A stretch of DNA of 31,327 nt from a virus (lineage: Duplodnaviria; Caudoviricetes): the IMG/VR virus record IMGVR_UViG_3300031787_000556, positions 1 through 31,327 of that record; one strand, written 5' to 3'. A program made the translations under genes and the position numbers. Each line of letters starts with the position of its first letter. The first letter of the stretch is position 1. This document shows, one piece after another, positions 1 to 31,327 of the stretch. The notes under the pieces were generated by a model, which did no database searches, was not told the DNA's origin, and saw only the letters and a program-made list of their open reading frames with translations.

Positions 1-3000
1 GGAGGTCGGCAAGGTTCCGCATCGTCTCGACGTAGCGGTCATACTCGTCGTCGGTCAGTTCACGCTTGAGTTCTTCCTTCAGACCCTTGATCTTTTCAGT
101 GGTTTTCTTGGTCTTGTTACCTTCGACGGCTTCCTCGTAGGTGATCTCCGCGCCGTCTTCGAGTTCCTTCTTGGAGAGTGTGCCGATGGCGAGGAGCCTC
201 TTGAGTACATCCTCGTCAACCTTCGTGTCACGCCCGGAACCGTCCAGACGTTCATCACCGAGGATGAGCAGAGGAGCGTTGCGGAGTTCCTTATCCAGCT
301 TGAACCGGGGGCTGGCAATGCGGCGGCTAATCACCAAGGCATAAGATACCACGAGGCGAGAGTTTCCCGTCAGTGCCAGCAGCTTGGCGAGACGTTCATT
401 ATACGTGTTGTACAATTTCGCCGCGTTCGTGCGCATGGCGTCCTTGAGATGCTCAGCGATGTTTGCCCCATGGTTGCGCAGAGCGTTGTAAGTACCCAGA
501 CGCAGGAACTTGCGCACGAACCTCTCGAACCTGTCGAGGTTATCGATCTTGAGGTCCCTGAGAGTGTTGGTCGCTTCCTCCATGCTGGCGGGCGGCGTAG
601 GGAGAAGGTCAAGCTGATTGCGCAGTGAATGCTGCGCAGAGTAGACCGAGTCTTGACTGAACCTACCCGTGCCGTTGTTGGTCATCACGGTCTGGAGGTT
701 GAGCGCGAAGGTGCTGGGCGTGAACATGGACGAACCATTGCGCACGGTGCTGCGGGCCTGAGACACGAGATAGCGGACGATGTCGTCCTCGAACTTCACA
801 CCCAGCTTGTTCAGTACATCCTTGATGGCATACCAGACACGGGCGAGGATGCTGCTGTCCAGCTTCTCAGCGAACTTCGCCATGTACTCTTCGACCGCCT
901 CGCGGCGGGCACCGAGCATGTCAACATCTTCGCTAGTAGTCGGACGAGCTTCTCTCTTTGTATCACCTCCAACTTTCTTCTTAACCATGTCCAATGTAGA
1001 GCGGAGATGGTCTTCAATCTCGATGTTCCTCTTTTGGTAGGCTTCCTCTACCAGCGAACTGAACTCTTTCAGTAGTGAAGATGCGTTACCTTCATTGTCT
1101 TCAAACCAATTCTGGATAATTAAATCCGCATCGTCTTGGTATTCAAGATCGGTAAGAAGTTTACTGAGTGCTCTGCTGCTACCTTCAACATCACCGTCTA
1201 GTGATCTGGCGTTGTCGAGGATGCTGTCCATCTTGGCGATGGCTTGTTTGTAGTCAGAACCCTTGATCGGAGAGAGTATCTCAAGAAAGAGGTCACCCAC
1301 CTTTCCGACACTGTCGGGGTTGTTGATATTACGCAGCTTCTCTTGAACTTCAGAGAATGCGCTAACAAACGTACCCACATCTAGCTTTGCTGGGATGCGC
1401 GGCATCTTGGGAACAGCAACAGCCCCGATAACAGAGCCTGCACCTTTCAGAAAACCGCGCCGAGACATAGGCGCAACCCCGGCAGGACGTAAGCCAAGAG
1501 CACCATCGACCGACTGACGCACACTGGGGTTATTATCATAGACGTAGTCCATGAGTGCATCGAACTGCTTCGCGGGCAGCAGAGCACGCATACCATAGTG
1601 ACCGATGGCCTCGTGAGCCAGCAGGAACCGCATGTGCTTCTCGGTCGGGATGCGGTCGGTGAAGACCAGCACCGTGTTGTCGAAGGCGTAGCCCGAAGCC
1701 GGGGCAGTGTCGAAATCTCCCTGCGGACGCGCTGCCACTGCACGTTGGTACAGTTCGGGATTGCGGCGCTGGAGGTCAGCTTGGTTCTTGTAGACGTAGA
1801 AGCGCGGAGCCTTGGCAAGACCACTGCGGAACTTGTCCACGATAGCCTTGGCCCGGATCGGGTTCACACCCTTGGCGGGGCGACCGTTCTCATCCACGGG
1901 GTTAGTGACGGCGTCGAACTGGGAGAGGCGATACCGCCCTTCATCGATGTCCTTGAGCGCCTGCTCAACACCGGCCCACCCTTGGGATGTCTTGTCCTTG
2001 TAAGTTTCAAGATACGCACGCGCAGTCCACTGCGCCTGATCAGAGATACCCTGCCCCTTGGCCCAGAAGATGAGGTTAGTAAAAGCGTTCCTGTACTCTT
2101 CCCTACGTTCGGGCGTATCCTTACCGGCCTTGGCTAGGCCCTTGATCTTATCTGTCTGCTTCCTGACTTGAGCAACGGCGGAATAAACCTCCTCCAACTC
2201 ACTGGCGGGAACCTTATTCTCATCGATGTTTTTCGACCCCTCCATGGCGTCTGCGGCAAGGTCAGCCTTGGCGTCATCCGATAGGTCCGCGTACTTGGCA
2301 TCTGCCAGACGGGCAGCTACCATTATCTGTTCCAGCGGGCTGAGTTCGGTGACAATGTACTCTTGCGCCTTGGCGCGTGCAGCGGGCGAGAGTTTCTCGT
2401 CGTTACCCATCCGCACAAGCTGAGCAAATGCAGTCGTGCGCTCATCCGCGTTGGCATTATTGGCTGCTATGATAGCGTCATCGACCTTCTTCAGGTCCTT
2501 CGCAGCTTTCTCAGCGGCCTTCTTCTCAGCCTTCAGTTCAGCGGGGGTTTTTGAGGGGGCGACCGCGACCGCCCCTTGGGCTTTTGGGGGTCGCGGTTTC
2601 CTGCCCGTTGGCTTCTTTTCCTCTAGCTTAGCGGCCCCACCAGCTTCTTCCCGTAGGGTTTCACTCCGGGCGGCAGGCCCTTGTTCTGCTTGCGCGGGTT
2701 CTTGGGCGGCGGTCTGCTGTCTTGCGCGGCCACGATTGCGCGGGCCTGCCGTTCCGCCTGCTCCGGGCTGCTCGGCCTGCTGTTCCCCAGTCTCCCTGTC
2801 TGCTGGTACGTCTGCAAGAGTCCTTGTATCCGCGCCTCCCGGTCCTGATCTGAAGTCATCAATGACCTCCTGCCTGATGGTGAACTCTTCACCGCCTGTA
2901 CCGAATGTGCGTGCGCGATCAGCAACCTTGAGCGTGTTGACCATGGTATCAGCAAACCGCTGTACCTTCTCTTTCTGCTCAAGCGTAAGCCTCTCGACCT

Positions 3001-5665
3001 TCAACAGCTTGGTCACCTTCCCCAGCTTCTTGAAGATATGCTTGGCGATGTCGCTCTCATTGAACTGCGTCTTGCCAGCAAGCAAAAGCTGGTTGAGGAA
3101 AGTACGGATACGCTGCGATGCCTTACCGACGTTGGGTGTAAGTTTAGGCGTAACACCAGTCGAAAGCGTTTCGACTTGCGCAGCAGTACCTGTGGGTATC
3201 ACATCTTCAGTGCCACGCTGGACAACTGTAACCTTACCAGTCGGCTCGCCCTTCTTACCCTTTGCTTTGCCGCGCTGAAGGCGCTGCAATGTGGCAGTAG
3301 GGGTTTCCGTTCCAGACCTAACGGGTGCGTAGCCAGTCACACCACCAAGCTGTTCCGGGGTGTACGTTGCCTGCATACCAGCACCCATAGGGGTCTGGGC
3401 AATCGGCTGGCGCTGCGGCCCTGCAACGAACTGCTGCGCCCGCCCACGGGCAAGCTCAGCCTGACGGTTGGCAACAATACGATCCGTAGCGACGCGGCGG
3501 CGGGCTTCGGTCGTGGTGGGAACACCACGCACCACATCAGCAATCGGAAGGGCAGGTGCCGTACCGGGTGCCACACCAGTGGGGATAGGCTGCGCAGGCG
3601 CAGCCTGACTGCCGAAAAATTGCTGCGCACCCTGCCGCTGTGCGGCCTGCTGCTGTACGCCCTGCTGCGCCTGCGCTGCCTGCTGCGCCTGTGCCAATGC
3701 AGCGGCTTGGAACTGTTCAAACGTACCGAAACCACCCGTCTGAGCGGGGGTCATGGTGGTGCCCATACTCATGGGACCACCCGTCACGGGGGGAACCGCA
3801 GGCGTGGGAGGAGCCACAGGAGACATCTGCAACGGCGGCGCACCGACAGTCATCGCACCCGGAGTTACAGTCGGAACAGGACCAGCCTGCCCCATAGCGC
3901 CGGGTACGGCACCTTCAGTACCGAAGTATGGGCCGGGGATCGTGCTGGGGATAGCGGGTGTAGGACCAACTTGGAACGTCTGGTCAGCAGCACCCGTCAG
4001 CGGGGCCTGCGTACCAGCAAAAGGCTGAAGACCAACGACAGGGTTGGTCATCTGCTGCACAGCGGCCTGCTCAGCCGCCTGCTCTTCCATGATACGGGTG
4101 TAGGGCTGCGGCGGGGCGAAGACCTTCTTATACTCAGTGTCACCGATCTGCTTCTTCAGATCGATAAGATACTGGGCATAGCCGGGATCGTCCTGAGATA
4201 CCGGCAGCAGGAGATTGGCTTCGGTCTTATTGTCAGCCAGCGAACCAGCGAACGCACCACCGGCACCGCCCATCACGCCACCCATTAGGGCACCGGCAGC
4301 GAAGGCGTTGATGATACGATTGGTCGCTTCAGCGGAGTTCAGGTCGAGGACAGGGTTAGCTGCGATCTGGAGGACTTCCTGCGTGCCTTCAGTTGCGCCT
4401 TCGATACCCATGCCAAGTGCGCCGTATCCGGCGATGCGGCCTGTGCGCCCCTTGGCGACACCCTTGAGGATGTCCATGGACTTGCGCTGGGTTTTGGCAA
4501 CGCCGACAACGTCACCCGCGAGTTCACTGAAGAGACGGCCAGCCAGCAGCAGTTCGGGGGCAGTGTCAAGAAGACCGCCAAGCGTACCGACCAGCAGAGA
4601 CACAGGGCGGTTGCCCTCGCCCCCGTCAGCCATGGTTTCGCCGTAGGCAGCACCCGTTTGCTGGAAGATATTTGAAGCAGTAGACGCTGCGATACCACCA
4701 CCGATCTGCCGCATACGGCGCTCAATGGCAGGGGCCTGCTTCATCACAGCCTGCGCACCAGCCGTCAGACCCTCGTTCAGCATCTCGTCAAAGGCACCGG
4801 GAGCAAGGCGCGTCTTGGCGGCATTCGCCGCCGCGTTGGTCATGCCAGCCGCAGAGAGCATGAGCTTCTTTTCGGCGGCGTCCAGTGCTTCGCCCTTCAA
4901 CTGCTTCTTGGCAGCTTCGAGCAGCGCCTTCTTGACCGCCGCCTTACCGAAGAATCCACCGATGGCACCAAGCACGGCACCAGCGGGGGCGGCAGGACCC
5001 GTAGCAGCACCACCAGCGACAGCACCAACACCGGCAGTGATGGCAGACTCGACCACGTTGGGGCCAAGGCGACCGATGGTCGCGGCCATCCAGTCAAGGA
5101 CGCCGTTCTCAGGCGTAGAGCCAATATCGGTGAAGTTGCGACTGTAAACCTGATTGGGCTGGAGGTCTGCTTCCTGATCTGCCAAGTACTGCCCGGTCTG
5201 CTCTGCACCCAGCCACTGAAGCCCGAGACCAGCCATCTGCTGCATCTCGTCCGTACCCATGCTGAAGTTCTTGCCCATCAAGGTCAGAAGACCGGGGTCA
5301 CGGATGCTCTGCACATACTGGCTGAAGCTGGTATCGTCCACCACTTGCCAGTTACCTTCAGGCAGCGGGGCTTCCTGCCCAGCGTACTTCGACATGACCG
5401 CAACGTCTGTGTCGTTGTTGGCGTCAACGACATGACCACCAATGAAGTACTTGTTCTCTTCGGGGCTGTAGGCGACACGGGCAGTACGCTGCGTGGGTTC
5501 TTCTTCCGGCTGCATAAACTGCTGGTTTTGCGTCCTCAGACCCGCGCGGATACCAGCAGCGTACTGGTCGATATCGCGCGAGGCCCTGTCGGCAATCGCC
5601 TGCGGAGTGTTCTGCCCCAAACCCTGAAGCATGGGGGAAGTTGTTCCGAGGAACCTGTCAGCCAT
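1..5665 (-). CDS. Giant virion/ejection (large polyvalent-type) protein, at least 1888 aa, 3'-truncated by the window edge; contains a zincin metallopeptidase-like motif
   Basis: Hand translation from ATG 5665 (MADRFLGTTSPMLQG...) stays open to base 1. The ORF track lists no minus-strand ORF in this frame, as expected if there is no in-window stop. It has Gly/Ala hydrophobic segments and an EGATEGTQE motif near the N-terminus, a Pro/Gln-rich middle, LLAHEAIGHYGMRALL (HExxGH at 1598-1615) and AVEEYMAKFAE (EEY at 884-892). It is the last gene of the ejection cluster. Confidence 0.9.
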   Translation of the reverse strand, partial: MADRFLGTTSPMLQGLGQNTPQAIADRASRDIDQYAAGIRAGLRTQNQQFMQPEEEPTQRTARVAYSPEENKYFIGGHVVDANNDTDVAVMSKYAGQEAPLPEGNWQVVDDTSFSQYVQSIRDPGLLTLMGKNFSMGTDEMQQMAGLGLQWLGAEQTGQYLADQEADLQPNQVYSRNFTDIGSTPENGVLDWMAATIGRLGPNVVESAITAGVGAVAGGAATGPAAPAGAVLGAIGGFFGKAAVKKALLEAAKKQLKGEALDAAEKKLMLSAAGMTNAAANAAKTRLAPGAFDEMLNEGLTAGAQAVMKQAPAIERRMRQIGGGIAASTASNIFQQTGAAYGETMADGGEGNRPVSLLVGTLGGLLDTAPELLLAGRLFSELAGDVVGVAKTQRKSMDILKGVAKGRTGRIAGYGALGMGIEGATEGTQEVLQIAANPVLDLNSAEATNRIINAFAAGALMGGVMGGAGGAFAGSLADNKTEANLLLPVSQDDPGYAQYLIDLKKQIGDTEYKKVFAPPQPYTRIMEEQAAEQAAVQQMTNPVVGLQPFAGTQAPLTGAADQTFQVGPTPAIPSTIPGPYFGTEGAVPGAMGQAGPVPTVTPGAMTVGAPPLQMSPVAPPTPAVPPVTGGPMSMGTTMTPAQTGGFGTFEQFQAAALAQAQQAAQAQQGVQQQAAQRQGAQQFFGSQAAPAQPIPTGVAPGTAPALPIADVVRGVPTTTEARRRVATDRIVANRQAELARGRAQQFVAGPQRQPIAQTPMGAGMQATYTPEQLGGVTGYAPVRSGTETPTATLQRLQRGKAKGKKGEPTGKVTVVQRGTEDVIPTGTAAQVETLSTGVTPKLTPNVGKASQRIRTFLNQLLLAGKTQFNESDIAKHIFKKLGKVTKLLKVERLTLEQKEKVQRFADTMVNTLKVADRARTFGTGGEEFTIRQEVIDDFRSGPGGADTRTLADVPADRETGEQQAEQPGAGGTAGPRNRGRARQQTAAQEPAQAEQGPAARSETLREEAGGAAKLEEKKPTGRKPRPPKAQGAVAVAPSKTPAELKAEKKAAEKAAKDLKKVDDAIIAANNANADERTTAFAQLVRMGNDEKLSPAARAKAQEYIVTELSPLEQIMVAARLADAKYADLSDDAKADLAADAMEGSKNIDENKVPASELEEVYSAVAQVRKQTDKIKGLAKAGKDTPERREEYRNAFTNLIFWAKGQGISDQAQWTARAYLETYKDKTSQGWAGVEQALKDIDEGRYRLSQFDAVTNPVDENGRPAKGVNPIRAKAIVDKFRSGLAKAPRFYVYKNQADLQRRNPELYQRAVAARPQGDFDTAPASGYAFDNTVLVFTDRIPTEKHMRFLLAHEAIGHYGMRALLPAKQFDALMDYVYDNNPSVRQSVDGALGLRPAGVAPMSRRGFLKGAGSVIGAVAVPKMPRIPAKLDVGTFVSAFSEVQEKLRNINNPDSVGKVGDLFLEILSPIKGSDYKQAIAKMDSILDNARSLDGDVEGSSRALSKLLTDLEYQDDADLIIQNWFEDNEGNASSLLKEFSSLVEEAYQKRNIEIEDHLRSTLDMVKKKVGGDTKREARPTTSEDVDMLGARREAVEEYMAKFAEKLDSSILARVWYAIKDVLNKLGVKFEDDIVRYLVSQARSTVRNGSSMFTPSTFALNLQTVMTNNGTGRFSQDSVYSAQHSLRNQLDLLPTPPASMEEATNTLRDLKIDNLDRFERFVRKFLRLGTYNALRNHGANIAEHLKDAMRTNAAKLYNTYNERLAKLLALTGNSRLVVSYALVISRRIASPRFKLDKELRNAPLLILGDERLDGSGRDTKVDEDVLKRLLAIGTLSKKELEDGAEITYEEAVEGNKTKKTTEKIKGLKEELKRELTDDEYDRYVETMRNLADL
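2623..2859 (-). CDS. Putative nested (+1 frame) 78-aa basic protein inside the giant ORF
   Basis: AGGAGGT (2871-2865) lies 5 nt upstream of ATG 2859, and the ORF MTSDQDREARIQGLLQTYQQTGRLGNSRPSSPEQAERQARAIV... ends at TAG 2623. Host-frame codons are unusually A-ending across this interval. Confidence 0.55.
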   Translation of the reverse strand: MTSDQDREARIQGLLQTYQQTGRLGNSRPSSPEQAERQARAIVAAQDSRPPPKNPRKQNKGLPPGVKPYGKKLVGPLS

Positions 5666-5675
5666 AACGATACCC

Positions 5676-8495
5676 TTATTGCGGCGTAACGCCGGTAGCC
5701 CGTGTCACCCTAACCTGCGGCTGGGGTCTTGTCACTACCCCTTGTGGCGTTGTCGTCTCCGCACCCATGGTGTACTCGATGATGTTACCACGCTCATCGG
5801 TAAAGACAATCTTACCAAGCTTACCTGAGACAGGGTCCATCTCTTCGCTGGACTTCGTCAGCTTGTTGGTAGCGATCAGCTTCTGGAACTCTGCGTTCTG
5901 CTTCAGTTCTTCGAGCGTCGTGACTTCAGCAATCTTACCCTGTATTTTCACTTTTTCGAGAAGGACTTCGCGCTCAAACTCAGCGTTCTTCTCGGCGGTT
6001 GCTGCCTGTTCGGCTGCTGCCGACGCCTTAATCTTCGGCAAGAACAGGTCCCGCGCTTCCGTTGCGGTGATACCGCCACCGGAGATGAGTTCGTTGTTAA
6101 CATACACCTGAACAAGCGTAGAGTTCTCGACCGGTACAATCTCAACAAGCTGTCCAGTGCCGCGAGACACCATGTCCGCAAACGGCTTCGGGTTGTTATT
6201 AACCATCAACTCGTTGACAGCAATGTTGATGTACTCATCGACACGAGCCAGATTGAGTTCTTCGATCTTGAGTTCAGCGGCACGCTCAGCCTGTCGCACC
6301 GTGTCCTCGACATCCGTCAGGTTTGTTGCAACACCTTCGATCTCAGCGAGGATCGTCTGGGCTTCGTCGTACCTGCCAAACTGCTTCGCCACTTCGAGGC
6401 GGCGCTGAAGGTCCTGATACTTCTTGGTTGCGGTGGCACGCGCCGTTTCCGCCGTCTGGTAGCTGTAGTTCAGATCGGACTCGACACGCACCTGCTCCCG
6501 GTCGTACTTCTCCAGATTGAAGGTAGAGAGTTCGGTCGGCCTCGCCGTATCAGTGGTCATCGGCGTGTTGGCAACCACACGCGCTTCGTTGTAGAGCGTA
6601 GCGAAGTACGCATTGTAATCGCTGTTGGTAAGACCAGCGATACCTTCCTTGCCCGCATCGTGCGTAGCCGTGGGCGCACCCATCTTGAGTACATCCCAAG
6701 CGTTACCCTGATACGCAGCACCCCAGAGGTTAGGGGGGATACCGAGAATTTCGATCATCTTGAGTTGGAGCAGCGCCGCATCGACGCTTTCTACTTTCTC
6801 CATCCCACCGGCAAAAATTTCATTGGCAAGCTCAGTGAACTTGGGCGGAACGCCGTATTCCGCAATGAATGCTTCGTCGGTGTAGAACTTCTTCAGTAGA
6901 TCAAGCTGACCCTTCTGGACATGGAAGTCACCAAACGTACCGGAAACGGGGTTCTTGCGCTTGTCCTTACCAAAGGCACTCTCAATACCCCAGACAGCAA
7001 CGAGCGCCGCACGAGGTACTTCAAACTCATCTGCGCGAGCCAGATACTCCTGACCCTTTTTCGACTGTACGGCGGGACCAAGAAGCGGAAGACGTTCAGG
7101 GACGCGCTCAGCGACTGCACTCGCGGAAAAATCGGTAATGGCCTTCACACGCGCCGGATCACCCGTGAGCGGCGTAGCCGCTGGGATATCCAAAGCAGGA
7201 TAAGCCCCAGCCACAGCTTCAGGCGTCTGCGGAGGAGTTACACCGGGCGCAGCCTGAAGGTCCGTCTTACCACCAGTAGCAGTCTGAGCAGCAGCGGCAT
7301 CAGCGACAGGGGTTGGACCTTTAGCAGTTTTACCAAACCTACCCTTGTACTTCTGATAATACCCAAACGGGTCTTTCTGAGCCTCTTCAATTGCTGCCGG
7401 GTTGGCAAGCATGAAATCCTTTACCGCAGGTGTCTCGAACCACTGAAGAGCTTCAGTGTTGCGTGCCTTCATCGTCTGGCGAGTATCGTAATCAGCCTGC
7501 GAACCAAAAAGATAGCTACCTGCATCCCCGAAAACATTCGTCATAAGGGAGCCGCGCAGACGATTATACTGGATAATAGCCCGCTGATTTGCCTTGTACG
7601 CTTCTGTCGCATTGGCCGCTGGCGGTAGATACGACTTCGGCTCATATCCGCCGCCACCGGGGGGCAGGGCGCTGGATGGTGTATCAACAACATACGGCGG
7701 CAGACCAGCCAGACCTGCGCGAGAAGCGGGGGCAGTGCCGGGAGCGCCGGGGGCGGGAGCGACAGCACCGGTAAACCCGATGGAGTCGGGAGCCGGGATG
7801 GCATTTGCCCTGCCGCTCTCACCGACACCACGGGGCTGCGTTTCACGTTCCGGCATGGTCCCACGGGGCTGTGCAGCCGGAAGTTCGCTTACAGACTGAG
7901 CGGCAAGGTTTGCACGCTTGTAGTCACCGGTACGGATCGCCTCATCGATAGTCGTGAAGATATCATTAAAGAAGGTCACACGCTCACGAGTACCGCCGAC
8001 CTTGGTAGCAATATCTCCATCAAGTTTTGTAAGCGCAGCGCGAATGCGCGGCTGCATGTTGGGCGGGGCCACTCGCAACTGCTGCTCAAGGATATACTTC
8101 TCACGCCCAAGGCTGTCGATCTCAGCCTTCTGGGCAGCAAGTTCAGAATTGTACTGTCCCTCAAGGAGCTTGCGCCTTTGCACGGCGCGGTCGCGCTCAT
8201 AAGACACACCAGCAGCACCGCCAGCATCGGCAGCACCGCCACTTCCCGGCTTCGGAGAAGTCATACCGGGCGGCATGGGCGGGGCCGCAGGAGCAGCCCA
8301 ATCGGGGAGCGCAACTTCAGACCGGGGCGTCAGACCAGCGGTGAATTGATCCAGCCCCGCCTGCTGCTGACGCATCAGACCTGCGCGTTCGCGTGCCGCA
8401 CGCTGTTCATTCAGTTCCTGCGCTTTGGCGTAACGCTCACGTTCAAGAGCAGCAACCGAGCTTGCGGTAGTGTAAAGACCCGGAGTGTATGCCAT
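5676..8495 (-). CDS. Internal virion/ejection protein with a lytic transglycosylase-like segment
   Basis: 939-aa ORF with coiled-coil and Pro/Ala-rich linkers. The segment ADEFEVPRAALVAVWGIESAFG resembles SLT-family motif I, with the putative catalytic Glu at about 6981-6983. Confidence 0.75.
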   Translation of the reverse strand: MAYTPGLYTTASSVAALERERYAKAQELNEQRAARERAGLMRQQQAGLDQFTAGLTPRSEVALPDWAAPAAPPMPPGMTSPKPGSGGAADAGGAAGVSYERDRAVQRRKLLEGQYNSELAAQKAEIDSLGREKYILEQQLRVAPPNMQPRIRAALTKLDGDIATKVGGTRERVTFFNDIFTTIDEAIRTGDYKRANLAAQSVSELPAAQPRGTMPERETQPRGVGESGRANAIPAPDSIGFTGAVAPAPGAPGTAPASRAGLAGLPPYVVDTPSSALPPGGGGYEPKSYLPPAANATEAYKANQRAIIQYNRLRGSLMTNVFGDAGSYLFGSQADYDTRQTMKARNTEALQWFETPAVKDFMLANPAAIEEAQKDPFGYYQKYKGRFGKTAKGPTPVADAAAAQTATGGKTDLQAAPGVTPPQTPEAVAGAYPALDIPAATPLTGDPARVKAITDFSASAVAERVPERLPLLGPAVQSKKGQEYLARADEFEVPRAALVAVWGIESAFGKDKRKNPVSGTFGDFHVQKGQLDLLKKFYTDEAFIAEYGVPPKFTELANEIFAGGMEKVESVDAALLQLKMIEILGIPPNLWGAAYQGNAWDVLKMGAPTATHDAGKEGIAGLTNSDYNAYFATLYNEARVVANTPMTTDTARPTELSTFNLEKYDREQVRVESDLNYSYQTAETARATATKKYQDLQRRLEVAKQFGRYDEAQTILAEIEGVATNLTDVEDTVRQAERAAELKIEELNLARVDEYINIAVNELMVNNNPKPFADMVSRGTGQLVEIVPVENSTLVQVYVNNELISGGGITATEARDLFLPKIKASAAAEQAATAEKNAEFEREVLLEKVKIQGKIAEVTTLEELKQNAEFQKLIATNKLTKSSEEMDPVSGKLGKIVFTDERGNIIEYTMGAETTTPQGVVTRPQPQVRVTRATGVTPQ

Positions 8496-30501: not shown

Positions 30502-30657
30502 ATGAGAAAGACCATTGCCGTGGAAATTTCCACGAAGCGCGGCACCCGCCGCGTCCTGCAAACCGTGTACGTCGAAGTGCGGGCGAGGAACATCGCTGAG
30601 TTCCTCAAGCGCATCCAGATGAGGCACAAGCTCAAGGCTCGAATTGTGGAAGGCTGA
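30502..30657 (+). CDS. 51-aa basic hypothetical protein (not in the ORF track)
   Basis: AAAGGA RBS. MRKTIAVEISTKRGTRRVLQTVYVEVRARNIAEFLKRIQMRHKLKARIVEG*. Confidence 0.75.
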   Translation: MRKTIAVEISTKRGTRRVLQTVYVEVRARNIAEFLKRIQMRHKLKARIVEG

Positions 30658-30712
30658 CACCAACGGAGAGCGGGAATGGTCCCGCTCTCCAACTTCTTTG
30701 AAAGGACAGCAC

Positions 30713-30787
30713 ATGCTTCTGACCCTCGGGTTCTACCTCGTGTTCATCTGCACAGGATATCTCTGGGTGTTCCACTGGAACGATTGA
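30713..30787 (+). CDS. 24-aa hydrophobic membrane peptide (not in the ORF track)
   Basis: AAAGGA RBS. MLLTLGFYLVFICTGYLWVFHWND* ends immediately before the terminator. Confidence 0.6.
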   Translation: MLLTLGFYLVFICTGYLWVFHWND

Positions 30788-30792
30788 CCCTG

Positions 30793-30823
30793 ACCCCTCT
30801 GGCTTCGGCTGGAGGGGTTTTTT
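30793..30823 (+). terminator. Intrinsic terminator with a C(UUCG)G loop
   Basis: ACCCCTCTGGC-TTCG-GCTGGAGGGGT followed by a T run. Confidence 0.9.
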
Positions 30824-30939
30824 GTTGCCTGCGTTTTGACCTGCCGCGCCTGTGGCGTTGGGGGGTTTTGCCCTCACTTCGTTCGGCCATACGTCGGGGG
30901 CCTATAGCTTGCCGTAAAAAGGTGAACTCTTAAGTCCTC

Positions 30940-31320
30940 TGGCTATCTTACAACCTAAGCCCCTTATGTAAACCCGATTATAACTTTACACTCAATGATT
31001 TCAAGCACTTAGCGCCAACTATCTGCGATTTGGGCTGTGCTAGATGTAAAATCTGTAGCTAACTTTACACGAACAAAGAGGGAATACTTTACAGTATAAT
31101 TCCCGAAAGACCAATGAAACCAAGGACTTAGCAAAATACCAGAGCGTCTATCTATCTATACTATCTAACTATCTGTATATTATTAAGAGTCACTCACCTT
31201 TTTTTTTTTCATATACTCTACTAAGACACTAGGACTTTACACTCCTAACCCGCCTCACCTTCCCAAGTTACCCCCACATTAACAGAAAAAACACAGATAG
31301 TTCAGATAGTACAGATAGCA
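30940..31320. repeat. AT-rich non-coding region with several short repeat families (origin-like)
   Basis: ACTTTACA occurs four times. CTATCT(G) copies on the left face three CAGATAG copies on the right. There is a T11 run and two CAATGA-N4-AAG-N-ACTTAGC-like copies. Confidence 0.7.
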
Positions 31321-31327
31321 CCCAATA

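Follow-up and report, generated by a model that had tools for sequence, protein, structure and literature searches.

Inside the predicted zincin domain of a giant, virion-type phage protein sits a cassette that opens with a twin-arginine head, much like the signal sequences read by the Tat translocase, and continues into an acidic cargo. This cassette is real, selected, mobile and widespread, and it joins two known kinds of element. Judged from sequence comparison, our tentative reading, which we hold to be not quite probable, is that it is a mobile mimic of a Tat signal, placed in a zincin loop of a protein that is likely injected, and that its head docks uncut on host TatBC. There is a fair chance that a new phage–host mechanism is at work.

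What carries the cassette?

The window, by which we mean the whole 31,327-nt stretch of DNA that was analysed, looks on its minus strand like the structural module of a podophage, in which genes for terminase, portal, capsid, tail fibre and an internal virion protein are accompanied by a 939-aa gene and the giant open reading frame (Table 1). The full-length form of the giant protein (P0002) has 2890 aa, and its C-terminal region (2426-2884) shares about 25% identity with giant proteins from F116-like Pseudomonas phages, some of these proteins being annotated as structural or internal virion proteins. The product of the 939-aa gene is likely the partner ejection protein: it has matches to PF13406 (E 8.9e-5) and to TIGR02283 (E 7.9e-6) that fall short of the cut-offs. 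Here, as with podophage ejection proteins of the gp16/gp50 kind, a lytic transglycosylase gene, if a weakly matched one, adjoins a giant gene within the structural module. Packaging in the virion and injection of the giant protein are likely by analogy with two proteins, phi24B gp47, a virion protein of 2811 aa that includes a metallopeptidase domain and is a proposed ejection protein (10.64898/2026.04.10.717836), and N4 gp50, which carries an HExxH domain and is modelled as membrane-anchored while refolding in the cytoplasm (PMC13434306). The likeness to these and to the F116-like proteins lies in very large size, possession of a zincin and a place in the structural module.

A Pfam search of the giant protein gave no match to RNA polymerase, LPD or MPTase families, positions 1-6000 of the window gave none to Rfam, and the zincin region had no match among cultured phages. 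A genome scan produced 12 weak matches only (E 9e-7 or worse), which we do not take as evidence of a host. Other exchangeable domains occur in family members, among them ART-PolyVal, MORN repeats and what its source labels an 8-oxoguanine glycosylase (P0039, P0060, P0068, P0084; P0098, P0102; P0096, P0100).

Table 1. Features of the giant protein, its cassette and the neighbouring gene, in window coordinates
Feature	Position	Strand	Basis or remark
Giant virion-type polyvalent protein ORF	2..5665	-	Cut by the window end; 1888 aa visible
Zincin C-terminal half with EAVEEY helix (AVEEYMAKFAE at 866-898)	746..916	-	Motif; AlphaFold2 model
In-frame cassette of 192 aa, Leu1392-Met1583	917..1492	-	Replaces a 4-residue loop (DSKD of P0004)
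Cargo, acidic (21% D+E), predicted all-helical	917..1396	-	AlphaFold2 model; composition
Tat-signal-like head, MSRRGFLK-GAGSVIGAVAVP-KMPR	1397..1468	-	RR motif; Gly-rich h-region; basic c-region
Zincin (MPTase-like) N-terminal half: helix, three strands, HExxGH helix	1493..1870	-	AlphaFold2 model; zincin fold matches
HEAIGH zinc-binding motif, residues 1351-1356	1598..1615	-	H, E, G and H invariant in 56 aligned sequences
939-aa gene upstream of the giant ORF	5676..8495	-	Short lytic-transglycosylase-like match

Is the insert genuine?

A preliminary description of this DNA had remarked that HEAIGH and AVEEYMAKFAE stand some 240 residues apart where a few dozen would be normal, and both halves of the remark are borne out. 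HEAIGH begins at residue 1351 (nt 1615), while residue 1590 (nt 898) is the first of AVEEYMAKFAE, and when the distance from HExxGH to E[AVI][AVIT]EE was surveyed in 121 proteins (the window's own and 120 listed of 190 matches) it came to 47-50 in 117 of them, to 238 in three (the window protein, P0001; its full-length form; and P0003) and to 221 in one (P0029). The alignment check that had been suggested therefore finds the insert absent from 117 of the 121 listed homologues, including relatives with flanks about 90% identical; for example, P0004-P0017 and L005-L007 lack it between flanks that are 73-95% identical. Its boundaries were set from the protein rather than the DNA alignment. They alter one detail, since MSRRGFLK is indeed present, with Met1400 at nt 1468, but the insert opens eight residues earlier, at Leu1392 (nt 1492).

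The GC content of positions 930-1470 is 47.5% against 58.6% for the whole window, the line at 1081 has the 23/60 GC first reported for it, and only the far end of the window (about 30600-31327) lies lower than the insert region. That far end, upstream of the terminase genes, is the lowest-GC part of the window over 30600-31327 (43-45%). Identical copies of the insert allele are carried by four other viral contigs, so it is not an assembly artefact.

Does the zincin domain survive the insertion?

It is predicted to, going by the AlphaFold2 model, in which the zincin core is confident (pLDDT 83-97 across model residues 21-150), as is the EAVEEY helix, which presumably supplies the third zinc ligand; the head is disordered and the cargo helical with low confidence. 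The elements H28-40, E47-51, E84-87, E90-94, H101-120 and H337-360 follow the MPTase arrangement of an N-terminal helix, a sheet of three strands, an HExxH helix and a Glu helix further on, and the zincin motif is of the four-residue HExxGH type. Structure prediction had been proposed as a check that HExxGH and EEY come back together, and in the model they do form one zincin-like unit, with weak Z: PDB zincins reach only Z 4.3-5.5, several of them covering both halves, and are interleaved with unrelated helical matches. Wss1, for instance, aligns to model residues 27-380 with an rmsd of 2.9 over 69 residues. The top BFVD matches of the zincin model are polyvalent proteins, and Foldseek against the PDB gave no match at E<=0.001 for either model. 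[quoted passage not shown] 2017, PMC5512222, in its main text). A sequence search of the PDB with the family profile returned low-complexity matches only and was discarded.

The peptidase motif is intact in the window protein and lost in allele L260. This allele (L260:320-345), which is 94% identical to the window and is known from one contig, keeps the cassette and reads LEAIGHL in place of HEAIGHY.

How Tat-like is the head?

Compared with the Tat signal sequence as set out in the available text of PMC7317946, the head fits, as far as its letters go, in everything except position. SRRGFLK, with its helix-capping first residue, is the exact (S/T)RRxFLK consensus, as had been noted at Met1400; GAGSVIGAVAVP makes an h-region of 12 aa with a mean hydropathy of 1.58 and a Pro 16 residues after RR, which is borderline for an h-region of at least 12 residues, rich in Gly, with a helix breaker 12-17 residues after RR; and K1420 and R1423 provide the basic c-region. 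In all these respects it resembles the canonical signals described by PF10518 and TIGR01409. Unlike them, and unlike Tat classes I-III, which are N-terminal, it lies at residue 1400 of an open frame and has no clearly conserved signal-peptidase site, the AxA-like site falling within the h-region (AVA in the window and L261, AAA in L260, AAVV in P0003). The head is the sole match to PF10518 in the window at 26.2 bits (cut-off 22.7, E 4.3e-7), although hmmscan places it lower, at 18.6 bits for the whole ORF and 21.8-22.1 for fragments, all under the cut-off; TIGR01409 scores 15.1 for the whole ORF and 18.6-19.6 for fragments, with a cut-off of 16.7. The h-region is only 9 aa long in the P0029 and P0110 heads. 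A complex prediction that paired the 40-residue head with E. coli TatC scored 0.00, which gives no answer either way.

Does the cassette recur, and is it selected?

Among the 260 listed family proteins, a set that includes 150 listed of 230 from a HMMER search, zincin inserts of at least 170 aa number five (P0001, P0003, P0029, P0110 and P0167), so that most members do without a cassette, and all five start, past a short linker, with [ST]RRx[FI][LMIV], two of the heads being degenerate. The three shorter inserts in the same set (29, 36 and about 90 aa) do not start this way. There are two insertion sites, one after the HExxGH helices (P0001, P0003, P0029) and the other between two strands before HExxGH (P0110, P0167). 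In a flank tree built in quick mode and leaving out P0167, four changes are needed for the four insert-bearing rows among 120, each with insert-less sisters; the cassettes of P0001 and P0003 are identical at 130 of 192 positions, and since these two proteins share one cassette, the pair reflects exchange or loss. A further 159 loci from metagenome and viral scans added no cassette lineage, the spacing at the upstream site being unreadable in many of them.

How far the heads stand out depends on the rule applied. A score matrix trained on heads from outside the family gave four matches above 12 bits in 601,710 positions (P0001, P0003, P0110 and P0176), with two shuffles peaking at 13.1 and 9.6, and it left the P0029 and P0167 heads, which have Ile for the consensus Phe, below 12 bits. 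A loose RR/KR rule showed no enrichment (5 matches against 1-9 in shuffles), and a stricter one, drawn up after the heads had been seen, found 10 against 1.27, made up of the five insert heads, P0176 and four unrelated matches.

Compared with L261, synonymous changes outnumber non-synonymous ones in the head (residues 1392-1431) by 19 to 5, as against 23 to 30 in the cargo (different from the head, p=0.006) and 32 to 30 in the flank upstream (p=0.03); the RR head is under purifying selection. The earlier idea of an exchangeable module inside the peptidase domain has accordingly stood up well, the insert being absent from most homologues, recurring as independent cassettes and carrying a selected head.

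Mobility is seen in the P0029 cassette which, in a search that included its head, recurs in 16 other giant proteins with little else in common. The pattern TRR[RK][IL][VL] is kept in all 16, LPD38 is present in eight of the nine that were scanned, and the cassette lies just before the zincin in 13, inside it at the equivalent loop in two and truncated in one. By this sequence evidence the cassette is mobile, shifting between giant-protein families. In one cluster of its carriers (P0275-P0288) the cargo consists of two blocks, each in two versions and in mixed combinations, behind an invariant head, and looks like it is recombining and diversifying.

The cargoes themselves are hard to place. 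No homologue of the window cargo was found in proteins of 339-2000 aa, an ESM Atlas search with it gave only sub-0.9 Tat-signal look-alikes, and HHalign probabilities among the five cassette lineages are below 4% in all 10 pairs; shuffle-based p-values for cargo relatedness (0.002-0.2) were set aside as prone to composition effects. The P0029 cassette was modelled at pLDDT 74, and its fold drew generic helical-bundle matches only (best Z 8.4, rmsd 3.3, 109 aligned), which we did not accept as an identity.

Where else do such heads occur?

When viral contigs were scanned with a head pattern, 31 matches came up, 15 of them internal and followed by an h-region (five of these are the window allele or its variant, and two have a doubtful start), against six matches and no h-region for a scrambled pattern. 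Relatives of BPP-1 Bbp10, giant proteins with LPD22, are among the carriers. Internal heads are common in marine pelagiphage-like proteins: an AT-rich pattern found 66 among the 120 listed of about 480 matches, the carriers checked being mostly genes near terminase and portal, and we estimate that the marine pattern alone occurs in about 1100 stored viral stretches. One AT-rich locus matches gp42 of the Pelagibacter phage HTVC027P, which resembles our case in having an internal head, here PS-KRKFIK-LGAGLMSLPIIGK. That head lies some 150 aa before the C-terminus, and its gene stands between the terminase and capsid genes; the differences are in carrier, cargo, the KR form and the annotation as hypothetical.

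The marine heads also show what is conserved. In one family picked out by its cargo, RRxF[LM]K is present in all 77 loci that reach the head, of 80 close relatives. In a blind scan that left the two arginine positions free, 120 loci yielded 105 distinct readable matches, of which 88 read RR, 10 KR, none RK or KK, and seven were unrelated chance matches; a basic site near the heads is K in 90 and R in 3. The 10 KR rows may stem from few events, since a similar context is common to all of them, and the asymmetry belongs to a marine phage family different from the window's. According to the accessible parts of two studies, KR is tolerated and RK blocking in thylakoids, with a native KR in TtrB (PMC6708511), and TatC binds the signal on the cytoplasmic side, the second Arg forming a salt bridge with E103 (PMC13323110), so the occurrence of RR and KR without RK or KK mirrors recognition by TatC.

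What might the cassette do?

In the mechanism we tentatively favour, a conserved twin-arginine head and a variable acidic cargo would be displayed from the zincin loop; after ejection the head would bind the host TatBC receptor from the cytoplasmic side, uncut, and the injected protein and its cargo would be held at a host membrane machine early in infection. That the head binds TatC we infer from its sequence. Since both ends of the cassette are anchored in a domain predicted to be one unit, it is likelier that the head docks on the translocase, or occupies it, than that export runs to completion. Docking is also favoured over cutting, since internal Tat signals exist, an internal start is not general and L260 keeps its cassette. 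The idea that a Tat signal must stand at an N-terminus to function is not supported, internal, non-cleaved signals of classes IV and V being known (PMC13673990, in the sections available). Against docking, a Tat tag on a protein that needs packaging could misroute it late in infection.

A bolder proposal, which we regard as doubtful, is that many uncultured aquatic podophages, the abundant pelagiphage-like ones included, seize the Tat translocase at entry by means of such cassettes in their injected proteins, the translocase giving the ejection machinery a place to dock at the inner membrane or a transient pore, or giving exchangeable cargo a route across the membrane.

Closest to the original suggestion, and in our view unlikely, is cutting of the giant protein near residue 1392-1400, by its own zincin or another protease, or an internal start there, which would free a Tat substrate and carry the cargo into the periplasm. 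Autoproteolysis has been proposed for the MPTases of polyvalent proteins (PMC5512222, main text), an A-x-G-G-R-I-G-F element that could be a cut site precedes marine heads, and the fuller signals of L013 and P0176 end in an AxA-like site ahead of the zincin. From inside the zincin, however, a single cut would drag along about 1300 residues unless a second followed, the AVA site is lost in P0003, and L260 kept the cassette and lost the first zinc His, so self-cleavage, suggested earlier as one way to expose the RR, looks dispensable (on one contig). As for an internal start, 41 of the 66 distinct, mostly marine, internal heads (within the 120 listed of about 480 matches) have a Met ahead of RR, but it is missing in P0029, P0110 and P0167, and the codon directly before the head is CTC in L023, L031 and L036 and ATC in L013; such a start is not general, Met before RR being unconserved across cassettes. 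Nor is the GGGGT before Met1400, offered as a start signal, conserved, since the L010 variant reads GGTGT.

It is improbable, we think, that the head acts late, on newly made protein, either tethering the giant protein, or heads under assembly, to the membrane via TatBC or saturating host Tat export. The gene does lie within the late structural module, and N-terminal Tat-like heads are also common on small phage ORFs that stand alone, but recurrence in virion-type giant proteins adjoining lysozyme-like genes fits an early role too. About as improbable, and next in order, is that the head binds the membrane as a helix, or serves a signal-peptide chaperone, SlyD for example, as ligand, and is Tat-like and independent of TatC. 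The h-region is short and the Phe degenerate in some lineages, and SlyD binds Tat signal peptides with the arginines contributing (PMC13673990, same sections), yet generic lipid binding would allow K/R exchange, whereas none of 98 distinct family-like heads, from phages that use Lys at neighbouring basic sites, has Lys in place of the second Arg. Finally, a captured fragment of a host Tat-substrate gene riding as a neutral passenger in a tolerant loop would suit the low GC, the known variable MPTase inserts (PMC5512222, main text) and the rarity of the cassette (5 of 260 listed proteins), but it is very improbable in view of purifying selection on the head, repeated independent gains of the same head, movement between giant-protein families and a cargo for which the search of proteins of 339-2000 aa found no cellular homologue.

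What is new, and why does it matter?

The carrier resembles the MPTase domains of polyvalent proteins in its HExxH helix, later Glu helix and giant virion-module protein, and the main text of the paper describing them (PMC5512222) contains neither 'twin-arginine' nor 'signal peptide'; likewise, the available text on N4 gp50 (PMC13434306) mentions no twin-arginine element, and that of 10.1101/2019.12.14.876532 no Tat. In the accessible sections of PMC13673990, the class IV and V signals of actinobacterial Rieske proteins and FecR are also internal, possibly uncleaved RR elements after a folded cis domain, but they belong to host proteins and anchor them in the membrane before an exported C-terminal domain. 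The window head is instead phage-borne and mobile, with a short h-region, in a loop inside another domain; the folded cis domain and internal uncleaved signal would fit class V, and what follows is the cargo and then the second half of the same zincin. The open-licence literature, to which our search was confined (subscription papers and supplements lay outside it), yielded no account of a phage-borne Tat cassette. According to the available parts of one study (PMC13412088), three Klebsiella phages had tatC hits and SignalP detected no phage signals; the study sought phage Tat motifs with SignalP only and in other phage families than the window's. Because the tag is internal, predictors that read N-termini would probably overlook it.

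Little is understood of how podophage proteins, once ejected, engage the inner membrane, and the available text of PMC13434306 calls the inner membrane complex of T7 'poorly understood'; a Tat-type tag that recurs and is selected points to one particular host partner. If true, seizure of Tat at entry would be a route of phage entry or takeover that we have not found described. A cultured carrier of the marine head exists in HTVC027P, on Pelagibacter HTCC1062.

Further observations

Many small stand-alone phage ORFs start with a Tat-like signal at the N-terminus (L011, L021, L024, L028, L029, L046, L050, L057, L069, L102 and L108). In L026 an N-terminal Tat-like signal precedes what we take to be a trypsin-like protease pattern. 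Fuller Tat-like signals with an AxA-like end lie directly before the zincin, inside giant proteins, at L013:1352-1981 (minus strand) and in P0176 (residues 300-560). Marine proteins are punctuated by an A-x-G-G motif, which could be a protease or packaging signal and appears as A.GGRIGF before the RR head and as ASGG[IL]A.[ML]LG[EV] at the C-terminus (L039-L158 and L166-L245, and gp41 and gp42 of HTVC027P, L165:5379-9510).
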